Notes: generated by a model not told the origin, from the sequence alone. 64,000 bases of DNA from Pristiophorus japonicus (GCF_044704955.1 NW_027252668.1:3968001-4032000), one strand, 5' to 3'; counted from the first letter of the stretch, positions 4,591 through 58,700 are shown. Numbers and translations: made by a program.

Positions 4591-4981
4591 AACTATTTTA
4601 GTAAAACAATAAATCAAGTGCCCCCTTATTAAAGGGGCATTAAAACAGACAAATTTAACTTTGGCATTAAATGGATCAAATTAAAATAGGTTCCCGGGGG
4701 TGATGATGCACTCCAGTCCCTCTGGCGCCCACCTCTCACGGAAGGCCACGAGCGTACCGGTGAACACCGCGTGCTCCATCTCCAGGGACACCCTGGCACG
4801 AACATAACCGTGGAAGAGAGGCAGGCAGTCGGGCTGAACACCCCCTCGACCGCCCGTGGCCTGGACCGGTTAATGCCTACCTTGGCCATGCCCAGGAGCA
4901 GTCCTACGAGGAGGCCTTCCGATCTGCCCGCTCCCCTCCGCACAGGGGGCCCAAAGATCAGGAGCGGGGGACTGAAGTGCA
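4591..4981 (-). mobile_element. Tx1-clade LINE 3' fragment (divergent subfamily)
   Basis: LHFSPPLLIFGPPVRRGAGRSEGLLVGLLLG matches the ORF2 C-terminus of the element at 44834-51936; ends ...AAAATAGTT. Confidence 0.85.
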
Positions 4982-10066: not shown

Positions 10067-10096
10067 AAAGGCAACTTCGAAACATTTCAACCCAAA

Positions 10097-10136: not shown

Positions 10137-10224
10137 GATCCCGGAATCAAATAATCCCTGTCCCGGGCTCAGATTCCAGATAGAAAGCATTGAAAATGAC
10201 TCCGGGATCCCTGGTGACTCGTTG

Positions 10225-10380
10225 GCATTGGCTGCACCCACCGCGCCCGCAGTGTCTGCACACACCCCTCCCTCAGTATCTGCACCCGCCCCTCCCTCAC
10301 TGTCTGCACCCGCCCCTCCCCCAGTGTCTGCACCCACCCCTCCCCCAGTGTCTGCACCCACCCCTCCCCCAGTGCCTACA
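10225..10380. repeat. 24-bp C-rich minisatellite downstream of H1
   Basis: Unit CCCCTCCCCCAGTGTCTGCACCCA repeated about 6 times; paralogue at 55530-55705. Confidence 0.85.
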
Positions 10381-11033
10381 ATAAAACACAGAGAATGGGA
10401 TGTCCAGCCCGGGCCTCACTGTAACTGGGGTTTGAGTACGGCTCCAGTCTCAGTTACTGGTCATTGTCATTTCACAGATTCAGGGGGAAGAGTCTCTGTG
10501 AGACGATGGGACTGGCGGCGATATCTCGCCTCACAACTCAAACCCCAAACTCCAGATTCTCAAAATCAGCTGGAATAAGGTGTTTGTAAAGTGCTGAACC
10601 GGTCTGTGAGAGGAGATGGAATAAGGTCTGAGATTGACAGGGAACGGACTATATAGGCGGGAATATTCCTGATTGTTAATTGTACCAGGACCTTATTTAA
10701 AAGCTTCTGGTCCCTGGAAGCCTTGAATATGAATTCCGAGTCTGTAAGGGTTTGTGCGGAGCGCTGTGTATCGGTTGTATTGTGGAGAAAACAATTTGAA
10801 ATTGGCGGTTGCAGAAAGCTGGAGGTGGAGCTGGAAGATCAGAGGCGGCGCTCTGCTCTGTCTCTCAATCTTGATTCTGTCTCCTTCCCTGCCGCGCTCT
10901 CTGTTTAACCTCTCACTCTGTCTCCTCCCCTTCCCGCCTCTCTCACTCTGCGCTTTCTGAGTCAGGTCGGGGCCGGCTCTATAAAAAAGGAGCCAGGAGG
11001 AGTTGGTTCCTCATTCAGCGACAGTTTGAGTGA

Positions 11034-11354
<321 letters not shown>

Positions 11355-12078
11355 ACAACTCCACCCTTTCCACCCAGCACAACACCACCCACCGCCTCAC
11401 AGAGAGAGCAGTGACCTGGGAATGGGTGTGTGGACAATTTGGGTGGGAATTTATTTTAGTTATTTATTTAATGGAAAGTAACACGCCGAGTTATGTAGCG
11501 CCTTACACGGCCATCGAACTTGTCAAAACCAATAAAGTACTTTTGCAGTGTAGTCGCTTTAGGAATATGGGAATTATTAAATATTTTAGAACAATAGTTT
11601 AATATGAGATCAGAAACTCCGGGTGTCCCGGTCACAATCAGCGGGCGGGGATACACAGTCTCCCCTCACAGATAATCCTGTTATGTTGTGAGCTTTGTGT
11701 AAGAATCGGTGAAGCGGGACGGCAGTGGCGGGACGGATGCGGGACTTTGTGTTTACAGGATGCAGTGACCGGGTAATTATTCCCGCCCGCTACAGACCCA
11801 TCAGGGAATGGGACAGAATTAAAACCGGAATGTTAAAGAGAATGGGATTGGTGATTTATAATGGGGCACCATCGAGGTTATAAAGAGCCGAATTCTTAAA
11901 TTGCTGGCGGGAAATTAGAGTTTCTTTAATCTCTGTTCGTTGAGACTCTGAAATTGGCGGGCTGTTTGAAATTGACGAACTTGTCAGTTTCATTTCAGTC
12001 AATCATGGCCCAGTAATCCCCGCCCTTCCCTTTCGCTCTCGGTGATTGATTGAAACATGATTGGCGGTCGGGTTATGA

Positions 12079-12582
<504 letters not shown>

Positions 12583-12851
12583 ACTCCCCCTGCCCGGGCT
12601 CTAAGCTTTCGCACCAAGTGCAACAACGGCTCTTTTCAGAGCCACCAAATCAGCAAAGGAAAGAGCTCCGACCGGCTCCAGGCAAACTGTCCTGTGTACA
12701 CACCGTGCTCGTCTTGTGTTACTACAACTGGGGCTTTATGTAGTGCAGGCGGTGATTATCTGGCTTTGATCCAGGTATCAATGCGAGTCAGAAGCCCAGT
12801 ATACCGACTGCACCCGCCCAATGTGGGGCGCTAACTATAAGTGGGAGATGT

Positions 12852-13726
12852 TCCACCGATTCTTCCTGGTAACCCATTTTAACCGGTTCTGACACCGGGA
12901 ATGTAGAGACTTGTCCCAGGAATCCTGACAGTCCCTGTGTTTCAGTGAAGGCGGGGAGTTTAAGCTTTGATTGTACAGTCTGACTCATCATTTTGGGCAC
13001 TACCATCTGTTGGTCACGAGAGGCATGTTTAGCTCTTTGTCAGCACAGTGGTTCCCTATATCAACCGGGGATTTTCCGGTGGTGTGGGCGGTACATTTAA
13101 CAACAGCAATGTGCTTGGGGAGCATAAGGGCTTGCAACAAATCAGATCATGGCCCACCCCAAAGGCATACCTAGAGTCGGTATAGATATTGACTTTGAGG
13201 TCTTTGGCCAAGATACAGGCTCGGGTGAGGGCGAATAGTTCAGCTTGTTGGGCAGAATAGGCGGTTTCAAAAGCGGCAGATTCCAAGATCTGATTCTCCT
13301 GGTTTACGATGGCATATCGTGAGATTCGTGTACCTTCTAGATTAATAGAAGATCTTCCGTCAACATACATAATACAGTCTGGATCTTCAATTGGTACATC
13401 AACAAAATCTTCCCTGACTGATGTGGCCTCTTAAATTAAAGATAAACAATCATGACTGGGTTCTTCCTCATCTTGGGGTGGCTCAGTAAGAAAACAGGCC
13501 GGATTAATTGCAGTCCAGTGCTGAAAGGTCAGTTTAGGATTGCCTGTGATTTCAGTGGGTTCTGTCGGATAGAGGGCCAGTCCACATTGCCCTGCACTGG
13601 GATCTCAATCGGATCAATGGGAGTATAACCCACTTGGGAGTGGTCCTCTGCCCACACATGAGGATCCACATAGTCAGGTATTTGCACATCCCGGCTGGTA
13701 GGGTCAGCCTCGTCTATAGCCTGGCG
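12852..13726 (-). mobile_element. Endogenous retrovirus pol fragments (RT N-terminus, RNase H), internally deleted
   Basis: YVDG...SAQQAELFALTRAC...VNIYTDSRYAFG are retroviral RNase H motifs; DPHVWA...PSIRQNPL resembles the RT N-terminus. Confidence 0.85.
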
Positions 13727-14705
13727 CACAAAACAAATTAAACTTTAAAACATAAAATCAAATTAAAATTTGGTTGCCGGGGGTGATGATGCACTCCAGT
13801 CCCTTCGGCGCCCAACTCTCGCGGAAGGCCGCGAGCGTACCGGTGGACACCGCGTGCTCCATCACCAAGGACACCCTGGCGCGTATGTACGCGCGGAAGA
13901 GAGGCAGGCAGTCAGGCTGAACGAACCCCTCGACCGCCCGCTGCCTGGACCGGCTGATGGCCCCCTTGGCCGTGCCCAGGAGCAGTCCTATGAGGAGGCC
14001 CTCGGACCTACCTGCTCCCCTCCGCACAGGGTGCCCAAAGATCAGGAGTGTGGGACTGAAGTGCAGCCAGAATTTCAGGAGCAGCCCCTTTAAATATTGG
14101 AAAAGGGGCTGCAACCTCGTGCATTCAATAAAAACATGGAGCACAGACTCTTCCAGACCGCAGAAATTGCAGGCGGCCTGGGAGCCCGTGAACCGACTTA
14201 AAAATTTATTGCACGGGACTGCTCCGTGCACCACCCTCCAGGCCAAGTCACTGATAAATAATGGGAGTACTCCTGCGTAGAGTGCACTCCATTCGGGACC
14301 CCTGCCTCCTCCGGATGGCAAGATGATACGCCATGGTGTGTCCGGACGGCAGACGAGGATGGCAAAGTTGAGTGTGCAGGAGCAGATCGTACAGGAAACC
14401 CCTCCGTGCAGAACTGAAAGGCACGGAGGGGATTTCCCCGAGGCGGCTCAAGTTGTGAGGCGCCGGCTCCCGAGGGAGGTTCCGATGTTTGGCGCCGATG
14501 AGGAATTCCGTCCGGACAGGGGTCAGTTCGGACGGGATCTGCCCACGTGCTTGAGCCTCCTCGACACACCTAACGGAGTCAGGGCCCAGTGCTGTTTTTA
14601 GCGACTCGATGGCATCGGCCGCGCGGCGGACGTCGGCCGAATTTAGGTGCCATGCCAGCGTGTCTGGCGCCATCCAGCCCACTCCTCCGCCATCGAGCAG
14701 GTACC
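13727..14705 (-). mobile_element. Tx1-clade LINE ORF2 3' fragment
   Basis: ORF 13758-14321 (CNFCGLEESVLHVFIEC zinc knuckle) closely matches 50760-51720. Confidence 0.92.
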
Positions 14706-15213
14706 CCGCCTCACAACTCAAACCCCAAACACCAGATTCTCCAAATCAGCTGGAATAAGGTGTTTGTAAAGTGCTGAACCTGTCTGTGAGAGGAGATGGA
14801 ATAAGGTCTGAGATTGACAGGGAACGGACTATATAGGTGGGAATATTCCTGATTGTGAATTGTACCAGGACCTTATTTAACAGCTTCTGATTCCTGGAAG
14901 CCTTGAATATGAATTCCGAGTCTGTAAGGGTTTGTGCAGAGCGCTGTGTATCGGTTGTATTGTGGAGAAAACAATTTGAAATTGGCGGTTGCAGAAAGCT
15001 GGAGGTGGAGCTGGAAGATCAGAGGCCGCACTCTGCTCTGTCTCTCAATCTTGATTCTGTCTCCTCCCCTGCCGCGCTCTCTGTTTAATCTCTCACTCTG
15101 TCTCCTGCCCTTCCCGCCTCTCTTACTCTGCGCTTTCTCAGTCAGGTCGGGGCCGGCTCTATAAAAAAGGAGCCAGGAGCAGTTAGTTCCTCATTCAGCG
15201 ACAGTTTGAGTGA

Positions 15214-16526
<1,313 letters not shown>

Positions 16527-16930
16527 ACAACTCCACCCTTTCCACCCAGCACAACACAAAGGTTCTTTTAAGAGCCCCGCACCGCCTCACAGAGAGCAGT
16601 GACCTGGGGATGGCAGTGTGGACAGTTTGGTTGGGAAGTTATTTCAGCTATTTAATTAATGGAAAGAAAGACTTTGATGTTTCTAGTGCCTTACACGGCC
16701 ATCGGACTTCTGCGGCAGTTTGAAAATCCACACTTCTAGATGGTTAACCTTATAACTAAAAACATCTGAGGCTCATTTCTGATCAGCAAACTTCAAGCTT
16801 AATTATAGTGAAGTATGTTAAATTAAATCTGGGACTATTGTTATCCACAGAACAGAAAGCAGCCCTTTCATAGATAGTGTGGGTGGCTCTGAAAAGAGCC
16901 TTTGGGTTATTAGATTAAATGCTGTCCGCT

Positions 16931-17723
<793 letters not shown>

Positions 17724-18673
17724 GCAGGGAGCGAATTTGTGATTGGTCGCTCGGTGGTGAATTTCATTGGTTTTTCCAGGTGACCAATCACAGTCTGTTT
17801 AGCCCACCAATGAAAGTAGGGCGGAAATTGCTGTCTCCAACAGTCAGAATAACGATTTTTAATTTAAAAACCCCGCCAAGAAATTTTAAAATAGCGGATT
17901 ATGTTAATATAAATTCACTATTAGTCAAAGATTTCCCAACACGTTTTAATTAATTTTGTCTTTCACATCTTCCCCTTGCAAGTTTCAAGCTGTTACAATC
18001 AGGATTAAATTCGGGTACTATTTCAAACTGTCTAATGGGCGGGAATCAATCCCCACCGATTCTGCAATGGGACACATTCCAACTTAATCTTTGTAAAAAT
18101 TGGGTTTCACAGATTATCGATCCTGCAAAGACGGGAGTGAGCCCAGAACTGGGAGTCCTTCAGTGAAAAGAGAAGAGGGACAGAGTATTCAAACTGCACC
18201 GGTTCTGGTCTCGAAGAACTCCCATTCTGGGTTGTTACACTGCGGGGAGTCTCGGGTTAATAAACGGACTGACCTACAACAGGAATTGAAAAATAAACTT
18301 GAAAAGGGCTTGCGAGAGAGAATGTGTGACTGAAATCTGAGTCTCAGTCCCTAAACAAGCTCTTAATTTGGCAGGCGGTGTAAATGAACGTGTCTGAGAG
18401 CACAGGGAAACAGCGACCAGGGACCGTATTTGTAGTTGGCAGAAAATTCCAGCGACGCTAAAGTGGAACGCGACAGTGAAACTGATATGAGAATTCAAAA
18501 CTAAATCTACAACTGGAAGTGTAAAAGTTCTCAAATATACTTGTTCAGGAAATAATTACAGTAAACAGAGTGTAAAGGGAGATGCGTTTGTGCAGCTCTT
18601 TCAGAGAGGTTGTGGGTGGCTCTTAAAAGAGCCGTTGTGTTTGGGGTTTGATCTGTCAGGACAGCGGGCAGTC

Positions 18674-19054
18674 TCACTTGGAGCTGGTGTACTTAGTCAC
18701 CGCCTTTGTCCCTTCCGACACGGCGTGCTTGGCCAGCTCCCCGGGCAGCAGCAGGCGCACGGAGGTCTGGATCTCCCGGGAACTGATGGTGCGGCGCTTG
18801 TTGTAATGGGCCAGGCGGGAAGCCTCACCCGCGATGCGCTCGAAAATATCGCTCACAAACGAGTTCATGATGCCCATGGCCTTGGAGGAGATGCCGGTGT
18901 CGGGGTGAACCTGCTTCATCACTTTGTAGATGTAGATGGCGTAACTCTCCTTCCTCGACTTTCTGCGCTTCTTGCCGCTCTTCGCTGGGGTTTTCTTGAT
19001 TACTTTCTTGGCACCTTTCTTGGCGGGACCTGTTTTCTTTTCGTCAGCCATCAT
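18674..19054 (-). CDS. H2B: Histone H2B
   Basis: ...[26 protein letters not shown]...AVTKYTSSK; stem-loop at 18618-18633; start may be the second ATG (19051). Confidence 0.96.
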
Positions 19055-41390: not shown

Positions 41391-43129
41391 TTATATTGTG
41401 GGTGTCTGGTATATGAATGTGGATTGACTCTGTATCTGCCCATCTCTGGTATGTGGATGAGCGTTTTCTAATACGAGTTTTATCCTGTACCTGTCAATTT
41501 CTGGTAATTGCCTGTGGGTTTCATTCTGTATCTTTCCATTCCTGGTGTGTGAGTGTGTGTTTTGTGCTCGATCTGTCCATCTCTGTTACGTGAATGTGAG
41601 CTCTACTTCATACCCGTCATTCTCCAATATGTTAGTATTGTTTTACTGTGTACCACCAATTCCTGATAGGGTATTCGTTTTACTTTCTGTCAATTTTTGT
41701 TATGGAGGTGAGTGTTTATGCTGAATCTGTCAGTCTCTGGTAAATGAGTCTGATTTTCACTCTGTATCTATCTGTCTCTGGTATGCGAATGTGGGCCTTT
41801 CTCTGTATCTCTCCATTTCTGTTATGGGAGTCTGGGTTTTATTCTGTACCTGTCAAATTCTGATATGTGATTGTGGGCCTTACTCTTTCCCTGCCAGTTT
41901 CTGCTTAATTGAGAGTGGGCTTTTCTTTGTACCTGTCAGTTTCTGCGATGGAAGAGATGTCTTTACTCTGTACCTGTCAAGTACTGATAAGTGAGTATGG
42001 CATTTCACTGTGTCTGTCAATTTATGTTATGGGAATGTGGATTTTAATGTCAGCCTCTGATATGTGAGTGTGGGTTTTATACTATATCTCAGCCTGTGAT
42101 ATGTGAGTGTGGGTTTTATACTGTATCCTCAGTCTCTGATGTGCGAGTGTGTGTATTCTTCTGTACCCGTCAGGTTTTGGTATGTGTGTTGAGGTTTAAT
42201 CTGTGCCTCTAAGTTTCTGCTATGTTGGTCTGGTTTTAATCTGTACCCATTTGTTCCTGCTACTTGATTGTGTGTTTTAGTCTGTACCTATCAGTTCCTG
42301 CTGTGAGAGTGTGGAATTTACTCTGTATCTGGTATGTGAACGTGAGGATCAATTTTACTTTTTACCTGTATTTCTCTGATATGGGAGTGAAGATTTTGCC
42401 TTCTACCTTCATTTTTCTGGTGTGTGCGTGTGGGTTTTACTCTGCCCCTATCAGTTTCTGCGATGCAAGTACCAATTTTACTTACTGCCTTTCAGTTTTT
42501 GGATATGTGCACATGGGATTTACACTTTACCTGTCACTCTCTGGTGTGCAAGTGCGGATTTTATTCTGTTACTGTCACTTTCATATATATGTGTGTGTGT
42601 TGTATACTGTATCTGTCAGTCTATGGTACAGGAATGTGGGTTTTATTCTGCACCTGTCATCTTCTGGTATGTTCTGGGGGTTAAATACTGAATCCGTCAG
42701 ATTCTGAAACTTGAATATGGCTTTTGCTCTGTACCCTCTGTTATCTTACACTGTCCACACACTGCCCGATAATGGCCTCTCCCTCCCCCCACTCACTCCA
42801 TGCTCCGGAACTAGTTCCTGCTCCACTCTGTCTCTGACAAACAAACAGCCCCCGACGGAACTAAACCAGGAACGTTCACTCCTGGTTAGGAGAGAGAAAG
42901 CAGCAATGATTGTAAACAGCAGATTCTGCCCATTCTGTCTCCCTTCCCCCTGGACACACACAGCCCGAGAATGGCCTCTCCCTCACACCACGCACTGACA
43001 CTGGTTCTTGCTCCACTCCGCCCCTTACACACAGACCCCGACTCCCCCCGGACTCAATGCCGGTCTCTGAGCCCACCTGCGGACACGCTCCCAAAGCGCT
43101 GCGCTGCTGTAAGGAGGCTGCTGCTCGCT

Positions 43130-43300
43130 GCCTTACCCCGGGGCCGCGGGCTCTCCATTTCCGGCTGTTTGAAAACATCTTCTTCCGCTCACTGAGTGAA
43201 TGGTGATCACAGGCAGATCTGGGGGAGCGGAGGGCGCATGCGCTCTTCTGCTCACTGGGAATCGACACAGGAGGTGGGGCTGAGCCGCGCATGCGCAGCT
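43130..43300 (-). promoter_or_regulatory. Candidate promoter/first exon of the zinc-finger gene
   Basis: GCGCATGCGC at 43234-43243 and 43287-43296; donor CGGG|GTAAGG at 43136 on the same strand as the zinc-finger exon. Confidence 0.55.
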
Positions 43301-43470
43301 CTCTGCAATAATTGAGCCTGTAAAAATCAAAATGCACTTTTCCCAATTTACTTTTATCAGAATCTGAACAAAGGAACTGGGCCTGGGGGGAAAGGACAGA
43401 GAATGATTAAAGCTGGGAGCCTTGTCCCCTGGAAATGCTCAATTTGGGATCATTCCGTGCAGGGTGTTTA

Positions 43471-44176
43471 CATAACATAAGAACATAAGAATTAGGAACA
43501 TGAGTGGGCCATCTCGCCCCTCGAGCCTGCTCCGCCATTCAAAAAGATCATGGCTGGTCTGGCCGTGGACTGAGCTCCACTTACCCGCCCGCTCCCCATA
43601 ACCCTTAATTCCTTTATTGGTTAAAAATCTATCTATCTGTGATTTGAATACATTCAATGAGTTAGTCTCAACTGCTTCCTTGGGCAGAGATTTCCACAGA
43701 TTCACAACCCTCTGGGAGAAGAAATTCCTTCTCAACTCGGTTTTAAATTGGCTCCCCCGTATTTTGAGGCTGTGCCCCCTAGTTCTAGTCTCCCCGACCA
43801 GTGGAAACAACCTCTCCGCCTCTATCTTGTCTATCCCTTTCATTATTTTAAATGTTTCTATAAGATCACCCCTCATCCTTCTGAACTCCAACGAGTCAAG
43901 ACCCAGTCTACTCAATCTATCATCATAAGGTAACCCCCTCATCTCCAGAATCAGCCTAGTGAATCGTCTCTGTACTCTCTCCAAGGCTAGTATACCTTTC
44001 CTTAAGTAAGGTCACCAAAACTGCACGCAGTACTCCAGATACGGCCTCACCAATACCCTATACAGTTGCAGCAGGACCTCCCTGCTTTTGTACTCCATCC
44101 CTCTCACAATGAAGGCCAGCATTCCATTCGCCTTCCTGATTACCTGCTGCACCTGCAAACTAACTTTTTGGGATCA
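43471..44176 (-). mobile_element. CR1 3' part, host of the Tx1 insertions (resumes at 51937-51992)
   Basis: ORF 43439-43984 is a CR1 C-terminus; absent at the paralogous site near 5893. Confidence 0.92.
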
Positions 44177-44821
44177 CCCACGGGCTTCCAGGCCGCCTGC
44201 AATTGCTGCGGTCTGGAAGAGTCCGTGTTCCATGTTTTTATTGAGTGCACGAGGTTGCAGCTCCTGTTTTGTTATTTAAAGGGGCTGCTCCTGAAATTCT
44301 GGCTGCACTTCAGTCCCACACTCCTGATCTTCGGGCACCCTGTGCGGAGGGGAGCGGGTAGGCCCGAGGGCCTCCTCGTCGGACTGCTCCTGGGCACGGC
44401 CAAGGGGGCCATCAGCCGGTCCAGGCAGCGGGCGGTCGAGGGGGTCGTTCAGCCAGACTGCCTGCCTCTCTTCCACGCATACATCCGCGCCAGGGTGTCC
44501 TTGGAGATGGAGCATGCGGTGTCCACAGGTACGCTCGCGGCCTTCCACGAGAGGTGGGCACCGGAGGGTCTGGAGTGCATCATCACGCCCGGCAACCAAA
44601 TTTTAATTTGACTTTATGTTTTTAAGTTAATTTGTTTTAATTGCCGGTGCTTTTAGTGTCCCCCTCCCCTTTTGTAGGGGGCACTTGGATAAAAATTCAA
44701 TTCTGTGCCCAAAAAAAACCCAAAAAATAAAAAATAAATAAAAAAGGGCATTGTAAATGTTGGTGTTTCCCCCAGATCGGGGGGCACGGTTGAATGTTTT
44801 TTGTTTACTCCTAAAAGAGTT
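44177..44821 (+). mobile_element. 5'-truncated Tx1 element
   Basis: ORF2 C-terminus ...ECIITPGNQILI* and a 3' UTR with GC hairpins, ending AAAAGAGTT. Confidence 0.92.
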
Positions 44822-45739
44822 TCATGCACAAGGGCCAATGGTGGAGCAATGGAGGCGTGGCCTATTCAGTTGGAGCTAAGCTGCAGAGAGAGAAGGAGCT
44901 ACCTGCTTTGCTCCTGTCTGGAAGGCCTGGAGTGAGCCCTGAGAACAGCCCAGGAATAGGAGGGAAGGGCTGGCTTGCTACCCAATCAACATCCGGAGGG
45001 AGAGGTGGAGCGCAGAAAAATTACCAACTTTATTACTGCTACAGAGAGTTGGAGAGAGTGGAAAGAGCAACAACCTGTGTGGAGGGAGGGAGATTCTGCA
45101 ATATTCTGCAGGTGGGTGTTGGTGCATTCCCCGAAAGACATTGTTTTATTGGTGGGGGGAGAAAGGAAGACCTTTCAAGGGCCGGAACATCGCGGGGTGT
45201 GTGTGTGTGTGGAAGTGTGTGTGGGGGTCTTGCTTACAACTAGGCCCCACACAACACTGAAGCACCCCTCCCCCATTGCCTAGCCTGGGATAGTTGGAGC
45301 TACCAGGCTGATAACTATTGATTACCCTGGTTAACATCGTTGGGAGTGTGTGCCTGTGTGGCTCCAGCTGCCCCAGGTGAAGACATCTTCTCCCCCCACC
45401 CCAAAGACTGTGTTTTGTTTTGCCATCTGGGGAGTGCACCCACCCATTGCTGTGAGGGGAGACCTGCCCTCGCAGCCTCCCTCTTTCCCACACCCCCTCA
45501 CTCTATCTCTCTCTCTCTCTGTCTCTCCCCTCTCTCTCTGAGAGCCCTTCCTCCTAATTTTTTAATAAAAAACAATTAAAACAACTGAGCAGAGGGAGCA
45601 AGGCCCCTCCCTAATTGCCAACTAGGGGAGAGGTGTGCCTCTTTCAGAGCTCCCTCTGTTCATACATTCAAACGAGGCCACTTAAGACCATTAAGGCCTG
45701 TGACTTTGGGGTGGGTGTGGCCCTTAAAGGGACCCCGTG

Positions 45740-47350
45740 ATGGCGACCCCATCTACGCCGGTGGCAGGGCCAGCTAGGACATATGCGCAGGCGGCGTCCA
45801 AATCCACGGCACCTCCTGCGCCACCTGCTGCCCTGCCACCTTTCAGACTCATTACAAAGAAAAACGGGGTCAAGAGCTACACTCACCCCACAATGAGCAT
45901 TGAGGAGTGCGTGCGGGCGATGGCTGGGGTAGTCGGCCCCTCGGCCATTGTCGCAGCCTCCAAGATGTCTGGGAAGGCCGTGTTCTTCCTGGGGTCGGAG
46001 CGAGCGGTGTCCCTGGCCATTGAAAAGGGGCTCACGGTGGGCGGGGCGTTCCTGCCGGTGGACCCTCTCGAGGCCACCGCGCAGAGGGTCATTCTATCGA
46101 ACGTCCCGCCCTTTGTTCCCGCTGAGCTCCTCCTCCCTCACCGACACCAACTGGGGGAGGTAAGGTCGGGGATCAACCCCATACCGCTCGGCCTCAGGGA
46201 GAACAGCCTGCGCCATGTGTTCTCCTTCCGCCGCCAGCTCTTTGTCCGGCTGGCGCGGGAGGAGACAACAGAGGGCAATTTTAATGTGGTGCACGAGGGG
46301 AATGCCTACCGTGTCTTCTGGACATCGGACGGCGTGCGGTGCCATGCCTGTAGGGAGGTGGGGCATGTTCGCAAGAACTGCCCTGCCTCCAAAGCTGCCA
46401 AACCACCAAAGGCGGCCAAGGCTGGCACCGCTGCCACCTCTCCCCCTAGTTGCGTCCGCGTGCCGGGAGCCATAGGTGCGCGGGCATCGTCGGAGGCCTT
46501 TGTTTTCACGGCCTCCGGTGGGGGGGAGGGAGAGCGTCCGACCGGAAAGAAAGCGCGGAAGAAGACGAAACATCTAGAGGCGGGTCCCCTCGGTGCGCCA
46601 GATAATCTATTTACCGCGCTCGGCCCAACCCCGTCACCGGCGAGCGCGGGGTGCCCTGAGCCCGTGCCCGAGCCCTTGATCAGTATCACAGCGGGGCTCG
46701 GGCGCGGGCAAGACAAGAAAAAGGGGTGGGTGGAGCGGGAGGCCTCGGCAGACATGGAGGTCTCCCTGCCTCCGCGCCCCCCCAGGAACAAAAGGAGGCG
46801 CCGCTCCAATGAGGCGGGGGTGGAACAACATCCCTCCGCGGAGGAGTCGGTGCCCGCCGCGTGTTACGCGTCCCCCACCGGCGCCCCCAAACCGCGCCGT
46901 AGGCGCGAGGAATCTGTCCCCGGGGAGGGTGGGACAATCGAGGCTGCCCAGCCGCTGCCTCCCGGGGATGGTGTGAAAGATCTGCCTGTCATGGGGGGCG
47001 TGGGGCCAGCAGAGGAATGCGTTGCCGCCAGGTCGAGCGTCCCGGGGACTGAGGCGGGCGGGGCCGAAAAGGCCGAACCCGAGCCCGCCCAGCCAATATC
47101 CAACTTCCCCCGGGACTTGCTCGACCCGGCAGAAATACAAAGTATTAGCAATTTTAATGAATCTGTACACGCTGGGCCGGGGGGTGGCGGCGGGAAAGGG
47201 GAAGAACAACAACCCTTGCCCCCTACTTTGGGGCTGGGGGACTTGGAGGACCTGTTCATTTCTTTGACCAGGTCTCTCCGTGTTCCCCGGTTCCTGGGGC
47301 GGAGGAGGAACCCCTTCCGCTGTCGCTCCCCGACCCAGCACCAATTCTAA
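45740..47350 (+). CDS. Tx1 ORF1 (RRM-like region plus CCHC zinc knuckle)
   Basis: RVILSNVPPFVP motif and CHACREVGHVRKNC knuckle; C-terminus probably frameshifted. Confidence 0.85.
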   Translation: MATPSTPVAGPARTYAQAASKSTAPPAPPAALPPFRLITKKNGVKSYTHPTMSIEECVRAMAGVVGPSAIVAASKMSGKAVFFLGSERAVSLAIEKGLTVGGAFLPVDPLEATAQRVILSNVPPFVPAELLLPHRHQLGEVRSGINPIPLGLRENSLRHVFSFRRQLFVRLAREETTEGNFNVVHEGNAYRVFWTSDGVRCHACREVGHVRKNCPASKAAKPPKAAKAGTAATSPPSCVRVPGAIGARASSEAFVFTASGGGEGERPTGKKARKKTKHLEAGPLGAPDNLFTALGPTPSPASAGCPEPVPEPLISITAGLGRGQDKKKGWVEREASADMEVSLPPRPPRNKRRRRSNEAGVEQHPSAEESVPAACYASPTGAPKPRRRREESVPGEGGTIEAAQPLPPGDGVKDLPVMGGVGPAEECVAARSSVPGTEAGGAEKAEPEPAQPISNFPRDLLDPAEIQSISNFNESVHAGPGGGGGKGEEQQPLPPTLGLGDLEDLFISLTRSLRVPRFLGRRRNPFRCRSPTQHQF

Positions 47351-47845
47351 AAGAGCCCAGTGGGGACTCCTCTGCCGACGATCCTGGGGGTGGGATCGGG
47401 GCAGAGCCAGGGCCGGATGGAGCGGCCGGGCCGTTTGCCGTACCTCGTGTGGTCGACGGGCCGGCTGCTAGCGGCGACCTCCCGGAGGAGGACGGGGACT
47501 CGGTGGAGGATGCGGGTGAAGATCTCGAGTCCATCGCCAATGCCTGACGCTGAGTCCCCCCTCATTCCCGTAGAGGTACTCCGGGACTTTTTTGTCGAGA
47601 GCCAGGGTCGCCGCAACCGAGCCCATCTGGCCCGGGAAAGATGATCCGAGCCGGGGCTGCTCATCGCTTCCGTCCGCGCCGCCGCTAAAACCATGGCCGC
47701 GGGTGGGCCCTTATCAAAGACGCAAGGCCTTGAGCTGCGCCGGCTCAAAAAGTTCCTCGCTGGGCTGCTGAAGGAGTGGAGGTCAGCAAACGACTCCACT
47801 CCCCCCCCACAATAGGTTAGGTAGAGGTTGCACTATGCTTTTGTC

Positions 47846-50800
47846 ATGGAGATAACCATAGCCAGCCTCAACATCAACGGCAGCAGAGAGGCATGCCGTA
47901 GATTTAACAATTTTTCGCTCCTGCTGCAGGGGAAATATGCGGTGTGCTTCCTGCAAGAAACCCACACCGTTCCGGGAGACGAAGCCACGTGGCTCCTGGA
48001 ATGGCAAGGAGAGGTCCGCATGAGCCACCTCACCGCCACTTCTAGTGGGGTGGCCATCTTGCTGGCCCTGCATTTTCAGCCGGAGATCTTGGGGGTCGAG
48101 AAGCCCGTGCCAGGCCGCTTGCTGCACGTAACGGTTCGCCTGGGGGACGTGCCGTTCCATCTCATGAACGTGTATGCCCCTCAGCCCAGCCCGCAGCAAA
48201 CGCGCTTCTTCGAAGAGGTGTCCGCTCTTCTTGGCTCCGTCGATGTCGGCGACTGCATTGTCCTTGGGGGGGATTTTAACTGCACCCTCGAGGCGAGGGA
48301 CCGCTCCGGTGCCTCGCAGAGCATGACGGCGATGGGGAAGTTGAGGGACCTGGTCGGGTCCTTCGACTTGGTGGACGTCTGGCGAAATCTCCATCCCGAC
48401 TCCAGCGCCTTTACTTGGTGAGGCCTGGAGTAGGATGGTCCAGAGTCGACCGCCTTTACGTGTCTCGGGCGAACGTTTCCTGCGTCCCAGCGGCCTCCAT
48501 GCGGCCGGTGCCGTGTTCGGACCACCACCTGGTGTGGGCGGAGCTTGCTTCGCTCCGCGCAAGGACGGGGTCCGCGTACTGGCACTTTAACAACCGGCTG
48601 CTGGAGGACGAGCGGTTCCAGGACTCGTTCCGTTGATTCTGGGCCGACTGGAGAAGGAAGCAGGGGGGCTTCCCCTCCTTGAGGCTATGGTGGGACGTGG
48701 GCAAGGCTCACGTCTGCGTCTTCTGTCAAGAGTACGCGAGGGGGTCGACCAAGAGGCCGGCAGCCTGGGTCGGGCGCCTAGAAAAAGAGGTGCTCGACCT
48801 GGAGTCCCGTCTCGGTCAAGTCGTCGGGGACCCGGCCCTGCGGACGGTGTACGAAGCGAAGAAGGCCACGCTGAAGGACCTGCAGCTCGTCGGGTCCCGA
48901 GGCGCGTTTGTGAGGTCGCGGATCCGTTTCCTGCGGGATCTGGACCGCGGCTCCCCCTTCTACTCGCTGGAAAAAAGGCAGAGTGTCCATAAGCAGCTCT
49001 TGACGCTGCTGGCCGACGACGGCTCTCTCGTCTTGGATCCGGAGGGCGTCAACAACAGGGCCCGTGAATATTACGGGGCTCTGTTCTCTCCAGATCCGTC
49101 CAGCGAGGAAGCGCGTAGAGTTTTGTGGGAGGACCTGCCGAAAGTCAGCCCGGAGGGCGGTGAAAATTTGGAAGCTCCGCTAAGCCTGGCTCTCGAGGGG
49201 AAAAACCCCGGGGCTGGACGGGCTGACAGTGGAGTTCCACAGGGCGTTCTGGGACGTCCTGGGGAGCGACTATGCGCGGGTCCTGGGGGAAAGTCTGGCG
49301 ACCGGGGAGATGCCCCTCTCTTGGCGCAGGGCAGTCATTGTCCTGCTGCATAAGAAGGGCGATCTCCGCCTCCTTAAGAACTGGCGCCCGGTCTCCCTCC
49401 TCAGCACGGACTACAAGATCTTCGCCAGGGCGATGTATGCTCACCTCGGTGCCGTGCTGGACCACATGATCCACCCCGACCAGTCCTACACGGTCCCGGG
49501 CCGGACAATCCACGACAACATCCATCTGGTCCGGGACCTCATCCATCATTCCCAGGAGGCTGGTCTGTCGGTTGTCTTCCTATCTCTCGACCAAGAGAAG
49601 GCGTTCGACAGGGTGGATCACGACTATCTGCTCGGAACTCTGCACGCTTTCGGGTTCGGGACGCATTTCGTCGCCCGGATCCGACTTTTGTACGCCGCCG
49701 CGGAGTGTCTGATTAAGGTTAACGGGTCCTTGACTGCGCCCCTTCGCTTTAGGAGAGGGGTGCGCCAGGGATGCCCCATGTCCGGCCAGTTATATGTCAT
49801 CTGCGTGGAGCCTTTCCTGCGCCTCCTGCGGACGAGGTTGACGGGACTGGCTCTGCAAGAGCCGGGCGTGGAGGTCGTCCTCTCGGCTTACGCCGATGAC
49901 GTGCTCCTCGCGGTAGAGGATCCCGCTGACCTGCGGAGGATGCATGAGTGCCAGGAAATTTACTCGGCCGCGTCCTCCGCCAGGATCAACTGGGAGAAAT
50001 GTTCCGGACTCCTGGTGGGTCAGTGGCAGGTGGACTCCCTGCCGGAGGAGCTCAGGCCTTTTGCCTGGAGTCCGACCCATCTCCTCTATCTGGGAGTCTA
50101 CCTTAGCCCCGACGAGGAAGCCTGGCCGGCGAACTGGCAGGAGCTGGAGGCCAAGGTCGTCGCTCGCCTAGGGCGCTGGACAGGACTGCTCCGAGTGCTG
50201 TCCTACAGGGGTCGAGCGCTAGTCATAAACCAGCTGGTGGCCGCAATGTTGTGGTACCGGCTGGTCACTTTGACCCCTCCCCCTGCGTTTGTCGCCAAGA
50301 TACAGAAGAAGCTGGTGGACTTCTTCTGGAACAACAGGAAGCACTGGGTCTCTGCCGCGGTCTTGAGTCTCCCGCTTGAGGAGGGCAGTCAATCGTTGGT
50401 GTGCGTCAGCGCCCAGCTCGCGACTTTCCGTCTTCAGACCCTGCAGAGATACCTTTACGTCGAGCCCCCTCCTAGGTGGTGTGCTCTGGCGACGTATTTC
50501 TTCCGCCAGCAGCGCGATCAATTACGACATGCAGCTCCTGTTTATGAACTTGGGGGGTGTCAGGACCGCCCTCCAGGAGCTGCCTGTCTTTTACAAGGAA
50601 CTCATCAGGGTCTGGAACAAAGTCTCCACCAAGCGCAGCTCTCCGCCGGCTGGAGTGGCGGCTGTCCTGCAGGAGCCGCTGCTCGGAAATCCGTACCTCC
50701 ACGACCGAGGTTTTATGTGGCGGTCGGAAGAGAGGGCTGTGGCTGGTGAGGTGACCAGGGTCAGGGACCTGCTCAATGGTGGAGGAGCGGGCTGGATGGC

Positions 50801-51723
50801 GCCAGGCACGCTGGCGTGGCACCTAAATTCAGCCAACGTCCGCCGCGCGGCCGAAGCCATCGAGTCGCTAAAAACAGCTTTGGGCCCTGACTCTGTTAGG
50901 TGCATCAAGGAGGCTCAAGCACGTGCGGAGATCCCGTCCGAACTGACCCCCGTCCGGACGGAATTCCTCATCGGCGCCAAACCCCGGAACCTCCCTCGGG
51001 GGCCGGCGCCTCACAACTTGAGCCGCCTCGGGGAAATCTCCTCCGTGCCTTTCAGTTCCGCGCGGAGGGGTTTCCTGTACGGGCTGCTCCTGCACACGCT
51101 CAACTTTGCCATCCTCGCCGGCCGTCCGGACACGCCATGGCGTACCATCTTGCCATCCGGAGGAGGCGGGGGTCCCCGATGGAGGGCACTCTATGTGGGA
51201 GTCCTCCCACTATTCATCGGGGACTTGGCCTGGAGGGTGGTGCACGGAGCAGTGCCGTGCAACAAATTTTTAAGCCGGTTCACGGACTCCCAGGCCGCCT
51301 GCAATTTCTGCGGTCTGGAGGAGTCCGTGTTCCATGTTTTTATTGAGTGCACGAGGTTGCAGCCCCTGTTTTATTATTTAAAGGGGCTGCTCCTGAAATT
51401 CTGGCTGCACTTCAGTCCCACTCTCCTGATCTTTGGGCACCCTGTCCGAGGGCCTCCTTGTAGGACTGCTCCTGGGCATGGCCAAGGGTGCCATCAGCCG
51501 GTCCAGGCAGCGGGCGGTCGACGGGGTCGTTCAACCTGACTGCCTGCCTCTCTTCCGCTCTTACATCTGGTCCAGGGTGTCCTTGGAGATGGAGCACGCG
51601 GTGTCCACCGATACGCTCGTGGCCTTCCGCGAGAGGTGGGCACCGGAGGGACTGGAGTGCATCATCACGCCCGGCAACCAAATTTTAATTTGGTTTTATG
51701 TTTTAAAGTTTAATTTGTTTTAA
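47846..51723 (+). pseudogene. Tx1 ORF2 (APE endonuclease, RT, C-terminal zinc knuckle), broken
   Basis: IASLNING, FLQETH, GGDFN, SDHH; KNWRPVSLL, LDQEKAFDRV, GVRQGCP, AYADD; CNFCGLEESVFHVFIEC; several frameshifts and stops. Confidence 0.92.
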
Positions 51724-52109
51724 TTGCCGGTGCTTTTAGTGTCCCCCTCCCCTTTTATAGGGGGCACTGGAAAAAAAATGTGATATTAGTGCCCAAAAAA
51801 ACCCCCCCTAAAGAAAGAAAAACACAAAAAAACCCACAAAAAAATGAAAAAAGGGCCTTGTAAATGTCTGGTGTGTCATCCAGGTCAGGGGGCACGGATT
51901 AATGTCTATGTTTTTCAGGTAAACTCCAAAAGAGTTTCATGCACAAGGATCCCCAGGTCCCTCTGCACCGCAGCATGTTGTAATTTCTCCCCAATCAGCA
52001 GTCTTCACAAAGCAATCCTGCAAAAACATCGGAGGGACGAGGGAGTGGGAGATTTTGCTGGGACCGCGCAGGAGTTAATATCTGACAGAAATAGTTCGAG
52101 ATTAGTTTA

Positions 52110-52372
52110 GTTCGAGAAACTTCTTCACCCAGAGAGTGGTGAACCTGTGGAATTCTCTACCACAGAAAGTTGTTGAGGCCAATTCACTAAATATATTCAA
52201 AAAGGAGTTAGATGAAGACCTTACTACTAGGGGGATCAAGGGGTATGGCGAGAAAGCAGGAATGGGGTACTGAAGTTGCATGTTCAGCCATGAACTCATT
52301 GAATGGCAGTGCAGACTGGAGGGGCCGAATGGCCTACTCCTGCACCTATTTTCTATGTTTCTATGTTTCTAT
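52110..52372 (+). mobile_element. Short CR1 3' fragment
   Basis: Ends GGCCTACTCCTGCACCTATTTTCTATGTTTCTATGTTTCTAT; absent in the paralogous region near 6018. Confidence 0.88.
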
Positions 52373-52389
52373 TAGAGTCAACCACTCGG

Positions 52390-54392
52390 TCACTGAGAGT
52401 AATATCGAAGTGGATAATCAAGAGGTTATATGTAGGGAGGAACTTATTACAATCACTATCACGAATGAAGTAGTACTCGGTGAAATAATGGGACGAAAGA
52501 CGAACAAGTCGCCTGGAATTGATGGCTTACATCCTGTGGTCTTATGAAATGTAGCTGTAGAGATAGTGGATGCATTGTTTGTAATCTACCAAAATTCCCT
52601 GGATTCTGGGGTGGTCCCAGCAGATTGGAAAACCGCAAATGTAACATCCTTATTTAAAAAAGGAGGCAGACAAAAAGCAGGAAACTATCACCCAGTTAAC
52701 CTAACATCTATCAATGGGAAAATGCTGGAGTCCATTATTAAGGAAGCAGTAGCAGGACATTTGGAAAAGCATGATTCAATCAAACAGCATGGTTTTATGA
52801 AAGGGAAATCATGTTTGACAAATTTGCTGGAGTTCTTTGAGGATGTAACGAGCAGGGTGGATAAGGGGGAACCTGTTGATGTGGTGTATTTGGATTTTCA
52901 GAAGGCATTCGATAAAGTGCCACATAAGAGGTTACTGCGCAAGATAAAAGCTCACGGGATTGGGAATAATATATGCTTGGATAGAGGATTGGCTAACAAA
53001 CAGAAAACAGAGTGTCGAGATAAATAGGTCATTTTCCGGTTGGCAAACAGTAACTAGTGGGGTGTCGCAGGGATTGGTGCTGGGTACTCAACTATTTACA
53101 ATCAATATTAATGACCTGGATGATGGGATCGAGTTTAATTTAGCCAAGTTCGCCGATGATACAAAGATGGGTGGGAAAGCAAATTGTGAGGAAGACACAA
53201 AAAATCTGCAAAGGAATATAGACAGGCTAAGTGAGTGAGCATAAATGTGGCCCATAAGGACATAAGAAATAGGAGCAGGAGTAGGCCATATAATCCCTCG
53301 AGCCTGGTCCGCCATTTAGTGTGATCATGGCTAATCCGATCATGGACTCAGGTCTACTTCCAGATGGAGTATAATGTGGGAAAACGTGAGGTTATCCACT
53401 TTGGCAGAAATAATAGAAAAGCAAATTATAATTTAAATAGAGAAAAATTGCAAAGTGCAGCAGTACAAAGCGATCTGGGGATCCTTGTGCATGAAACACA
53501 AAAAGTTTGCATGCAGGTACAGCAAGTAATCAGGAAGGCAAATGGAATGTTGGCCTTTATTGCAAGGGGGATAGAGTATAAAAACAGAGAAGTCCTGCTA
53601 CAACTGTACAGTGTATTGGTGAGGCCACATCTGGAGTACTGTGTACAGCTTGGTCTGCGTATTTAAGGAAGGATATACTTGCATTGGAGGCTGTTCAGAG
53701 AAGGTTCACTCAGTTGATTCCGAAGATGAAGCGATTGATTTATGAGGATAGGTTTGAGTAGATTGGGCCTAAAAACATTGGAGTTCAGAAGAATGAGAGG
53801 TGATCTTATTGAAACTTATAAGATAATGAGGGGACTTGACAAGGTGGATACAGAGAGGATATTTCCACTCATAGGGGCAACTAAAACTTGGGGGGGGACA
53901 TAATCTTAGAATTAGGGGCTGCCCATTTAAAACTGGGAAGAGGAGGAATTTCTTCTCTCAGAGGGTTGTAAATCTATGGAATTATCTGCGCCAGAAAGCT
54001 GTGGCGCCTGGGTCATTGAATATATTTAAGGCGGAGATAGTCAGATTTTTGAGCGATAATGGAGTAAAGGTGTTGTGTGTGGAGAAAGAGTCAGACTGAA
54101 CACTGTGAGCTCAAAGTAAAGTGTGACCTTTGTCTTTGATTGCAGGTCTCCAGAGTGCCTCTCCAACCTGGGAAGCCTCCTTAAATACCTGTGTTCCCAA
54201 AGAATTATGGGATCCTTGGGACTCCAGGGGATGAGCCCTCTGGTGGCTGTATAGAGTAAATACAAGTATACAGATATAACAAAAGGGTTATGCGGAGCGG
54301 GCAGGGAAGTGGAGCTGAGTCCATGATCAGATCAGCCATGATTTTATTGAATGGCAGAGCATGCTCGAGGGATCAAATGGCCTACTCCTGCT
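52390..54392 (+). mobile_element. CR1 RT and 3' end (paralogue of 6030-7825)
   Basis: Same RT motifs and the same nested antisense tail (about 53253-53360). Confidence 0.92.
54071..54281. mobile_element. Solo LTR (211 bp)
   Basis: TGTT...AACA flanked by the 5-bp duplication AAAGG (54066-54070 and 54282-54286). Confidence 0.85.
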
Positions 54393-54856: not shown

Positions 54857-55360
54857 TGGGCGACCAACATCCTCAAGGTTGTGGCCGATGGCAAGGATCG
54901 CAGAGGAATGTCCCTGGCCACGATAAAGAAGGCTCTGGCGGCCAAAGGCGTGGATGTGGAGAAGCGCGCGTCCAAGATAAGATTCAGTATTAAGAGTAAT
55001 GTGATGAATGGCTTCCTGAAGCAGATCAAGGGCACGGGCGCCTCGGGCTCCTTCAAAATCGCTAATACAGATCCCCAGGAGAAAGTGGGAAAGAAGGTGA
55101 AGAAAGCAGCAGCCAAGAAATCTCCAGTAAAGAAAGCAGCAGCCAAGAAATCTCCAGCAAAGAAAGCAGCAGCCAAGAAAACGAGCAGCAAGAAGGCGCT
55201 AACAGCAAAAAAGACAGCGAAAGGGCCGGCTAGGAAGAAGGCGGCGGTGAAGAAGCCCAAGAGCCCCAAGAAAGTGAAGGCGGCCAAAAAGGTGGAGAAC
55301 CCGAGGGTCAAGGCCACGCCCAAATCAGCAAAGGCCAAGAAAGCAGCACCCAAAAAGTAA
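54857..55360 (+). pseudogene. H1: 5'-deleted histone H1
   Basis: Lacks the promoter and first ~37 codons relative to 9389-10066; stem-loop GGCTCTTCTCAGAGCC retained at 55395-55410. Confidence 0.85.
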
Positions 55361-56358
55361 ATAAAAAGGCAACTTCTAAACATTTAAACCCAAAGGCTCT
55401 TCTCAGAGCCACCCACGCCTCTCAGAAAAGAGCTGATCCCGGAATCAAATAATCCCTGTCCCGGGCTCAGATTCCAGATAGAAATAATTGAAAATGACCC
55501 CGGGATCCCGAGTGACTCGTTGCCATTGGCTGCACCCGCCCCTACCCCAGTGTCTGCACCCACCCCTACCCCAGTGTCTGCACCCTCCCCCAGTGTCTGC
55601 ACCCACCCCTGCAGCAGTGCCTCAGTGCCTACACACACCCCTCCCCCAGTGTCTGCACCCACCCCTCCCCCAGTGTCTGCACACACCCCTCCTCCAGTGC
55701 CTACAATAAAACACAGAGAATGGAATGTCCGGACCGGGCCTCACTGTAACTGGGGTTTGAGTCCGGCTCCAGTCTCAGTTCCTGGTCATTGTCATTTCAC
55801 AGATTCAGGGGGAAGAGTCTCTGTGAGACGATAGGACTGGCGGCGATATCTCGCCTCACAACTCAAACCCCAAACTCCAGATTCTCAAAATCAGCTGGAA
55901 TAAGGTGTTTGTAAAGTGCTGAACCTGTCTGTGAGAGGAGATGGAATAAGGTCTGAGATTGACAGGGAACGGACTATATAGGCGGGAATATTCCTGATTG
56001 TTAATTGTACCAGGACCTTATTTAAAAGCTTCTGGTTTCTGGAAGCCTTGAATATGAATTCCGAGTCTGTAAGGGTTCGTGCGGAGCGCTGTGTATCGGT
56101 TATATTGTGGAGAAAACAATTTGAAATTGGCGGTTGCAGAAAGCTGGAGGTGGAGCTGGAAGATCAGAGGCGGCGCTCTGCTCTGTCTCTCAATCTTGAT
56201 TCTGTCTCCTCCCCTGCCGCGCTCTCTGTTTAACCTCTCACTCTGTCTCCTCCCCTTCCCGCCTCTCTCACTCTGCGCTTTTTCAGTCAGGTCGGGGCTG
56301 GCTCTATAAAAAAGGAGCCAAGAGCAGTTGGTTCGTCATTCAGCGACAGTTTGAGTGA

Positions 56359-56679
<321 letters not shown>

Positions 56680-57419
56680 ACAACTCCACCCTTTCCACCC
56701 AGCACAACACAAAGGCTCTTTTAAGAGCCACCCACCGCCTCACAGAGAGAGCAGTGACCTGGGAATGGCAGTGTGGACAGTTTGGTTGGGAAATTATTTC
56801 AGCTATTTAATTAAAGGAAAGAAACACTTCGATATATATAGCGCCTTACACGGCCATCGGACTTCTCAAAGCCAATAAAGTACTTTTGCAGTGCAGTCGC
56901 TGTAGGAATATGGGAACTATTAAATATTTTAGAACAATAGTTTAATATGAGATCAGAAACTCCGGGTGTCCCGGTCACAATCAGCGGGCGGGGATACAGT
57001 CTCCCCTCACAGATAATCCTGTTATGTTGTGAGCTTTGTGTGTGACAATTGATGAAACGGGACGGCACTGGTGGGATGGATGCGGGACTTTGTGTTTACA
57101 GGATGCAGTGACCGGGGAATTATTCCCGCCCGCTACAGACCCATCATTAATGGGACAGAATTCAAACCGGAATGTTAAAGAGAATGGGATTGGTGATTTA
57201 TAATGGGGCACCATCGAGGTTATAAAGAGCCGGAATCTTAGATTGCTGGTGGGAAATTCGAGTTTCTTTAATCCCTGTTCCTTGAGACTCTGAAATTGGC
57301 GGGCTGTTTGAAATTGACGAACTGTCAGTTTCATTTCAGTCAATCATGGCCCAGTAATCCCCGCCCTTCCCTTTCGCTCTCGGTGATTGGTTGAAACATG
57401 ATTGGCGGTCGGTCTGTGA

Positions 57420-57923
<504 letters not shown>

Positions 57924-58604
57924 ACTCCTCCTGCCCGGGCTCCAAGCTTTCGCACCAAGTGCAACAACGGCTCTTTTCAGAGCCATCAAATCAGCAAAGG
58001 AAAGGGCTGCGACCGGCTCCACGCAAACTGTCCCGTGTACACACCGTACACGTCTTGTAGTGTTATTATAACTGGGGCTTCATGCAGTGCAGGCGGTGAT
58101 TATCTGACGGTGCGGCTTTGATCCATGTATAGATGCGAGTCAGATGCCCAGTATACCGACTACACCCGCCCAATGTGGGTCGCTAACTGAGTGGGAGATG
58201 TGATAGTGAATTGATCCCACTGCACATACCGGGACAGATTCCAGAGAGGGGACGAGCTGTCTGCAATCTGTATCTCACCTTTAACCCAGCTCTTAATGCG
58301 GGCACAGGTCGGATACTATTTGGGATATTTTAAATTAGCCTTGAGCTGGAATTCCATCCTTCTGTACGCAAATTTAAAAAAAGGATAAAAGTCCTCATGG
58401 ATCAATGTGTTCAGAATGCATATATTTCTCCCTATGGAATTATTGCCCATATAAAAGTCAGTGAGCCCATCAACCGCTCATTCCTTTATACTCGGCTCTT
58501 ATCCGCTTCACATTCGGCTGTCCCAACATGTTTAATGACTAGCGGTCTGACGTTCAGCTTCCGTCTATTTTGTATAAAATTAGATCAGGGACAATTGTGA
58601 TTCA

Positions 58605-58700
58605 CAGAACAGAAAGCAGCCCTTTCACAGATAGTGTGGGTGGCTCTGAAAAGAGCCTTTGAGTTATTACATTAAATCCTGTCCGCTTTACTTGCTCTTG
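58605..58700 (-). pseudogene. H2A: Orphan H2A 3' end (last codons and stem-loop)
   Basis: Matches 16845-16943, then joins the 64-bp satellite. Confidence 0.8.

Follow-up and report, generated by a model that had tools for sequence, protein, structure and literature searches.

Two Tx1-type retrotransposons at one nucleotide of a CR1-like LINE point to a possible coding-region target site

Here we describe two retrotransposons of the Tx1 type, copies A and B, which lie in tandem at a single nucleotide of a CR1-like long interspersed nuclear element (LINE) in 64,000 nucleotides of the Pristiophorus japonicus genome (GCF_044704955.1 NW_027252668.1:3968001-4032000; this whole stretch is hereafter the window, and positions are counted from its first letter). 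Judged by sequence comparison, the preferred site of the A/B subfamily may well be a conserved stretch of this abundant LINE, a reading that we place somewhat above even. The wider proposal, that a vertebrate Tx1 subfamily specifically targets the coding region of another autonomous LINE, the dominant CR1 of its genome, is in our view evenly balanced. The locus also suggests, by extrapolation from this single case, that most A/B-subfamily copies genome-wide lie at the CR1 site. The CR1 coding site is probably a new class of target, reached by a known mechanism.

Results

Two Tx1 elements split one host LINE

The interrupted LINE (hereafter the host LINE) and the elements within it comprise the following parts:

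43470..44174, minus strand: 3' part of the host LINE, with the C-terminus of open reading frame 2 (ORF2), the 3' untranslated region (UTR) and a short-repeat tail; 68-77% identity to long matching copies in the window
44175..44178, no strand: 4-nt filler at the 5' junction of copy A, without a target duplication on that side
44179..44821, plus strand: Tx1 copy A, 5'-truncated, with the last ~140 ORF2 codons (stop 44609-44611) and a 210-nt 3' UTR; end AAAAGAGTT
44822..44833, plus strand: 12-bp host target TCATGCACAAGG, first copy, between A and B
44834..45739, plus strand: presumed 5' UTR of copy B, 906 nt, single copy in the window
45740..47815, plus strand: copy B ORF1, gag-like with a CCHC zinc knuckle; in-frame stops at 47348 and 47642
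47846..51693, plus strand: copy B ORF2, with APE endonuclease, reverse transcriptase (RT) and C-terminal zinc finger, as recognized by Pfam
51694..51936, plus strand: copy B 3' UTR, end AAAAGAGTT, without poly(A)
51937..51948, plus strand: 12-bp target, second copy, at which the host LINE resumes in register
51937..51990, minus strand: 5' remnant of the host LINE, ~54 nt, encoding ...QRDLGILVHE, 5'-truncated, resuming in register

The host LINE (minus strand, 759 nt in total, 43470-44174 plus 51937-51990) is thus split at one nucleotide, and between its halves lie, in order, the filler, A, 12 bp of host sequence, B and the same 12 bp, which open the resumed host. Both elements are antisense to the host LINE and entered it at the same nucleotide. 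This was the central claim of an earlier sequence-only reading, and its junctions are borne out within 2 nt, the host stopping at 44174 and resuming at 51937; that reading had placed copy A at 44177-44821, of which the end stands while the start moves to 44179, behind the filler. All insert boundaries are ambiguous by one T. A and B have their last 9 nt in common, and in both the next 12 nt, no more and no fewer, are identical (44822-44833 and 51937-51948); beyond these the flanks differ. The probability of a given 12-mer is 6e-8 per position. The 12-bp duplication that had been described around the second element is therefore confirmed as an identical pair.

In the host ORF2 frame the target corresponds to the LVHE codons, as had been proposed. 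This is seen both in the frame of the split copy, whose translation past the site reads on as SQKV in the 3' part, and in four close empty copies, which read LVHE(T/S)Q(K/N)V. Eight other host-family copies in the window read through the break point uninterrupted, four with the sequence TCATGYACAAG and four with a diverged version of it. A profile of the host family built from these same eight copies re-finds all of them, recovers the split copy as two halves that meet at profile columns 66-69, and gives one weak extra match. The 12-bp target also occurs exactly in the empty host copy at 53494, and the window sites within one mismatch of it number six, all of them CR1 sites or the two junction copies.

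Sister copies of the host LINE carry Exo_endo_phos, Exo_endo_phos_2 and RVT_1 domains, with an RT distant from that of Tx1. We take the host LINE to be a CR1 from its C-terminal motifs and its tail; the name does not derive from a library match, and a protein search with its peptide retrieved no named CR1 relative. The paralogous site at ~5894-5910, within block 5151-7698, is free of the host LINE, which must therefore have inserted after the duplication of that block or have been lost from the paralog.

Copy B (44834-51936) is apparently full-length, a judgement made on one copy. Its ORF2 is broken by frame changes near 48420-48439, 49191-49199, 50510 and ~51450 and by a stop near 48634. It bears no head derived from a small nuclear RNA (snRNA), all Rfam matches being far below the family cut-offs. 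A conserved hairpin in the 3' UTR was considered and found no support, the two sequences offering no compensatory change.

A and B are very probably separate insertions

The coding sequences of A and B, compared over the 133 codons they share, are 6.5% apart, with a pN/pS of 0.35. When the substitutions were re-placed at random in the same base and CpG context, 7.8 of the 26 coding substitutions were expected to be silent against 13 observed (p=0.019); the same test gave p=0.002 for A and p=0.001 for B when each was compared with copy C, a third copy described below. Divergence is higher in the terminal ~100 nt, where 17 of 99 aligned positions differ between A and B, than in the coding part, where 26 of 403 do (p=0.002), and private changes are evenly spread (12 in A, 14 in B, 15 in C). 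The silent excess and the fast-diverging termini indicate descent from different active lineages, and neutral decay after a local duplication would not fit them. The sequence-only reading had argued for separate insertions because the 3' UTRs differ. The separateness holds, on the silent excess and the faster termini; the UTRs do differ, yet their homology is clear (184 matches, 25 mismatches, 9 gaps).

These comparisons bear directly on a simpler history, in which a single untargeted insertion into CR1 was followed by local duplication, unequal recombination or misassembly of the 3' end of B together with the 12-mer, giving A. Copy A is indeed homologous to the last 650 nt of B and adjoins it, the window is rich in segmental duplications, and CR1 makes up as much as about a quarter of it. 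Such a history would, however, have to accommodate the 6.5% coding difference with its silent excess, 20 nt that A keeps and B has lost, the fact that A is as near to C as to B, and a copied flank ending exactly at the length of the duplication. We regard it as highly improbable, and conclude that A and B are very probably two independent, site-directed insertions.

Two further Tx1 copies in the window

Two other copies on the minus strand complete the set of Tx1 sequences considered here:

13730..14705, minus strand: copy C, of the same family as A and B (~7% apart), cut ~35 nt past the stop codon, without its 3' end
4591..4981, minus strand: copy D, a diverged relative with a short, different 3' UTR; end AAAATAGTT

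Copy C, missed in the earlier reading, is uninformative on targets because it lacks its 3' end. Within ~12950-14705 (minus strand) its 5' end is fused to a spacer repeat of the histone cluster and its cut 3' end to a broken pol remnant, which we take to be of retroviral type and RNase H-like.

Copy D differs from A, B and C by 11-13%, and its insertion includes an extra 5' segment of 169 nt (4982-5150). It is flanked by a degenerate duplication of 11-12 bp (5151-5161 and 4580-4590, 9 of 11 positions identical), which a paralogous empty site near 42750-42760 confirms; the earlier caveat that the divergent end at 4591 lies in unrelated sequence is thus upheld, down to a duplication of its own. 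D ends in the same AGTT as A and B and then runs into other DNA, which identifies AGTT as the end of the family and the 12-mer as host sequence, in keeping with the earlier treatment of the 12-mer as lying outside the element. Read from its sequence, copy D is a putative off-target insertion or a member of a different subfamily.

The 169-nt segment is single-copy in the window and has neither an Rfam match nor an snRNA-derived head. At 5001-5012 (minus strand) it contains a two-mismatch copy of the 12-bp target in element orientation, 19 nt upstream of the Tx1 part of D. The window holds five such two-mismatch matches, about the chance number, and the one in this segment is oddly placed.

A possible preference for the CR1 site

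If any base were usable, the chance that the two or three informative copies share a nucleotide and strand would be 8e-6 to 2e-5 per window, and some strong site preference is therefore needed. This chance rises to 0.02-0.12 under a relaxed 8-bp motif and to 0.2-0.6 when use is restricted to the five TCATGYACAAG sites. A target matrix, built from these very sites, scores the two filled junctions at 27.0 and 23.2, the empty sites at 29.8-31.0 and the best other position at 14.2. Comparison of the last 5 nt of the element with the 5 nt upstream of the site gives four matching positions in three of the four near-perfect empty host copies. With the insertion codon ~700 nt from the 3' end of the host LINE, the site is present even in host copies that are short and truncated.

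The double hit could instead mark a hot spot for a family that prefers a short relaxed motif (~R-TG-N-ACA-R inside the duplication), of which the CR1 site is merely a frequent carrier. One rule would then cover all three intact ends. The D and CR1 targets are alike at 6 of 12 positions (5 of 6 in the core), and the motif is found 25-51 times in the window, whence the repeat-hit probability of 0.02-0.12 given above. The motif was, on the other hand, drawn post hoc from two sites whose likeness is borderline (p=0.054), and it requires both a repeat hit and that, out of about fifty sites, the one hit be among the roughly five in CR1. D is moreover a diverged subfamily with a different 3' UTR, and Tx1 subfamilies switch targets (PMC4494074; statements from this and the other papers cited here refer to the accessible parts of each). 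The window data favour the narrow over the relaxed target model, and we consider the relaxed motif unlikely.

A preference might also be carried by RNA. In this explanation transcripts of CR1-resident source copies read into the 12-mer, their tails pair with nicked CR1 DNA, and the 12-mer between the elements came from the RNA of A. The presence of the 12-mer only 3' of A and the lack of a poly(A) end would suit it, and read-through RNA of the target is said to make targeting stronger for other site-specific elements (PMC4494074). Yet B has an ordinary two-sided duplication, the shared flank ends at exactly 12 nt, and D ends in AGTT without a CR1 tail. At least one insertion in exact host register would still be required, so that the explanation, which we find improbable, alters the mechanism and not the target.

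Lastly, the CR1 site could be a secondary look-alike of some other multicopy main target, such as a small-RNA gene, a satellite or another transposon, given that U2, U5, 5S, satellites and microsatellites are among the targets known for Tx1 elements (PMC4494074). All six window sites within one mismatch are, however, CR1 sites or junction copies. The sole U2-like gene in the window (17485-17723) was compared as a candidate and set aside, its likeness to the target reaching 8 of 12 positions at best, and no U2 stands at any Tx1 junction in the window. Although the window is a small sample of the repeats of the genome, we hold such a target to be very unlikely.

The inserts are of Tx1 type

The assignment of the inserts to the Tx1 type is secure, that to a sub-lineage is not. 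Copy B ORF2 matches, in order, the Pfam families Exo_endo_phos (1e-8), RVT_1 (1.5e-38) and zf-RVT (2.7e-5), and its endonuclease aligns to L1-type structures at 1e-15. ORF1 carries a zf-CCHC match (residues 204-219) whose E-value of 0.0035 does not reach the curated cut-off, and its Atlas look-alikes are CCHC proteins. A gag-like ORF1 with a CCHC knuckle is a feature of the Tx1 clade. A link of ORF1 to ZCCHC3-type domains was dropped; it came from one Atlas row, and the accessible text of PMC9004415 makes no mention of it.

For the RT, 8000 candidate relatives were scored and 719 passed, of which the best 120 were listed. The nearest among these 120, by identity over the RT region, are an unnamed record, P0023 (79%), and turtle proteins (61-67%). 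Teleost proteins among the same 120 stand farther from copy B than the turtle proteins, at 45-49%. An annotated Tx1 ORF2, P0057, scores 428 bits with 48% identity to the copy B RT, which scores 145 bits against L1 and 70 bits against R2, a rough comparison because the databases differ; identity to the CR1 RTs of the window is 24-28%. A quick RT tree was built from 39 rows: copy B, 25 proteins taken from the 120, 11 loci from the 58 described in the following section and, as outgroup, two RTs of the host-LINE group. It places B in one clade with seven turtle proteins and P0023, at an SH-aLRT of 100. It was a quick search whose rows include no curated Tx1 family or L1, and the letter make-up of copy B was flagged as unusual in the data. 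An 11-residue endonuclease hairpin loop, equal to the length reported for Tx1L, is present in 14 of the 120 listed relatives, from turtles.

Searches beyond the window

An alignment query of the species-genome collection returned 58 loci, with a best segment of at most 42%. These loci (L001-L058) are L1/Tx1-like RT loci of eukaryote type that lie in bins of bacteria and archaea, some of which hold several; they are most likely host contamination. A blastn comparison of 55 of them (three left out) with both 3' UTRs and the host LINE gave no match, and the 11-nt motif was in none. Junction-spanning peptides had no match among 1.84 billion representatives and no candidate in a 5.8-billion set. 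A control with a plain host-LINE peptide gave one candidate and none at E<=10; this blank control makes the peptide blanks uninformative, as the protein collections appear to be without the repeats of this genome. Among the listed matches for the 120 RT relatives there was no sign of a chimera with the host LINE.

Genomic setting

The window is vertebrate-type, repeat-rich DNA with a C2H2 zinc-finger cluster in paralogous blocks, histone clusters and many copies of one LINE group. This host-LINE group covers up to 27% of window bases, an overestimate because simple repeats were drawn in, and this share fits the 22-34% that CR1-group elements make up in shark and ray genomes (PMC13343379). The paralogous zinc-finger blocks (5151-7698 versus 42750-43469 plus 51993-54068) are ~95% identical at aligned bases, and they supply the empty sites for the host LINE and for copy D alike.

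Histone clusters occupy 9400-18700 and 54857-58660, in which H1, H3 and H2A were identified by direct reading, alongside frames resembling H4 and H2B and seven histone stem-loops; they are partly duplicated, at ~91% identity. The U2-like snRNA variant (17485-17723, minus strand) lies within a histone cluster and keeps the U2 5' end and 3' stem around an altered middle; it measures 239 nt against 192 in the model, and its 5' motif recurs just downstream. An interpretation of 10527-15299 as a long terminal repeat (LTR) element with a captured histone H3 was dropped, the region being histone cluster.

Discussion

How far a CR1 preference may extend

A number of observations weigh against the CR1 site as the preferred target. 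The locus was picked for its striking look and is a single one; only one of five near-perfect sites in the window, and one of nine host copies spanning the site, is occupied. Of the three intact 3' ends two are at the CR1 site, which amounts to one of two loci, and copy D sits in non-CR1 DNA, in a repeated upstream block of the zinc-finger cluster. The target of D shares 6 of 12 positions with the CR1 site, a likeness that the relaxed motif would explain too, and its site is absent from the best-scoring positions listed (up to 400 per strand) for four target matrices. Within the locus, A lacks a target duplication of its own, and in the split host copy itself the element end matches the upstream 5 nt at three positions. 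The endonuclease hairpin loop of copy B is broken by a frameshift and is hence unreadable against those of site-specific enzymes. Finally, no junction outside the window was recovered, either in the searches described above or in one of the species-genome collection with the RT protein, which confirmed none of 38 pattern matches. The earlier proposal that CR1 is the target of the family accordingly survives as a site preference at one locus; in its genome-wide form it is an extrapolation, with a single locus, D elsewhere and four of five sites empty.

A proposed sequence of events at the locus

Standard target-primed reverse transcription uses a nick opposite the element sense at the left edge of the duplication, and a second nick makes the duplication. 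We propose that A and B arose as sequential, independent insertions of a site-preferring Tx1-clade retrotransposon. Its APE endonuclease would nick the host LINE sense strand in the Glu codon of LVHE (plus or minus 1 nt), where reverse transcription would be primed, and a second nick on the other strand, 12 nt away, would yield the 12-bp duplication. The duplication and the AGTT end of the element may together rebuild a target-like junction, allowing repeat hits and head-to-tail tandems. Insertion of A first is slightly favoured, because the 3' junction of A would then have given a near-complete target. Joining at the 5' end of A probably relied on imperfect pairing to the host DNA upstream of it; both the point of truncation and the lack of a duplication would then be accounted for. 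The 16 nt upstream of the filler are similar, and in register, to the Tx1 sequence immediately past the point at which A is truncated; of 5000 random window 34-mers, 37 and 94 score as well as this resemblance of the 5' flank.

If the CR1 preference is true, a Tx1 hit would destroy the ORF2 of any active host LINE copy, and one LINE would be parasitising another at a target held constant by the protein constraint of its host. The endonuclease would be aimed at a very high-copy, dispensable site. Such a system would be a natural case of a LINE inactivating a LINE, and a test of specificity change in APE endonucleases.

Comparison with known systems

Published target classes of site-specific retrotransposons comprise rRNA, tRNA and snRNA genes, microsatellites, telomeres, DNA transposons and LTR elements, in the accessible literature, and the present case, if true, would add the coding region of an autonomous LINE. 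We found no report of a Tx1 family targeting CR1 or any other LINE; a prior description is possible, subscription journals and Repbase being mostly outside the search. The accessible parts of PMC8869645, PMC5537684 and PMC9004415 contain nothing on LINE targets, and those of PMC4640811 and PMC5035012 list "transposons" among targets with LINEs unnamed. Among the targets that Tx1 families are reported to prefer are Mariner, Harbinger, LTR and piggyBac elements, U2 and microsatellites; the criterion for calling a family target-specific is that more than 20% of its genomic flanks are of one repeat type (PMC4494074). Here, independent insertions at one position with a target duplication are found at one locus, A being without its own duplication.

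The closest parallel is Tx1-Mar with the SINEUs of crocodilians (PMC4494074), in which the site likewise lies in an abundant transposon, a hot region is hit antisense, and tandems sandwich the duplication, as in SINEU-3, where they form by sequential insertion. Tx1-Mar, however, prefers a Mariner DNA transposon (Mariner-N4), whereas here the flanks are a LINE coding region. The SINEU-3 duplication is 16 bp long and, by eye, unlike this 12-mer, SINEUs end in poly(A), and some Tx1-Mar copies carry U1/U2 heads, which copy B does not. Tx1-8_Crp and Tx1-4_AMi (LTR) and Tx1-9_AMi (Harbinger) have similarly switched to transposon targets, retroelements included (PMC4494074); those targets are LTR or DNA elements, in contrast to the LINE coding region here.

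Xenopus Tx1L resembles copy B in its two ORFs and APE endonuclease and in its highly specific insertion into another mobile element (PMC1950540, PMC4494074), an insertion described as stringent (PMC1950540). Its target is the piggyBac-type Tx1D rather than a CR1-like LINE, and the bases 3' of the nick are AGTT in Tx1L but ATCC here, and AACA in the commonest empty copies. The nearest relatives found, the turtle Tx1-like ORF2 proteins and P0023, were compared by protein only. Mutsu inserts into 5S. Keno (U2), Kibi and Koshi (microsatellites) are also sequence-specific Tx1-clade elements in multicopy targets, but these are RNA genes or simple repeats, unlike the target here (PMC4494074). Both the mechanism and Tx1 transposon-into-transposon targeting are already known, and the finding extends this kind of system rather than founding one.

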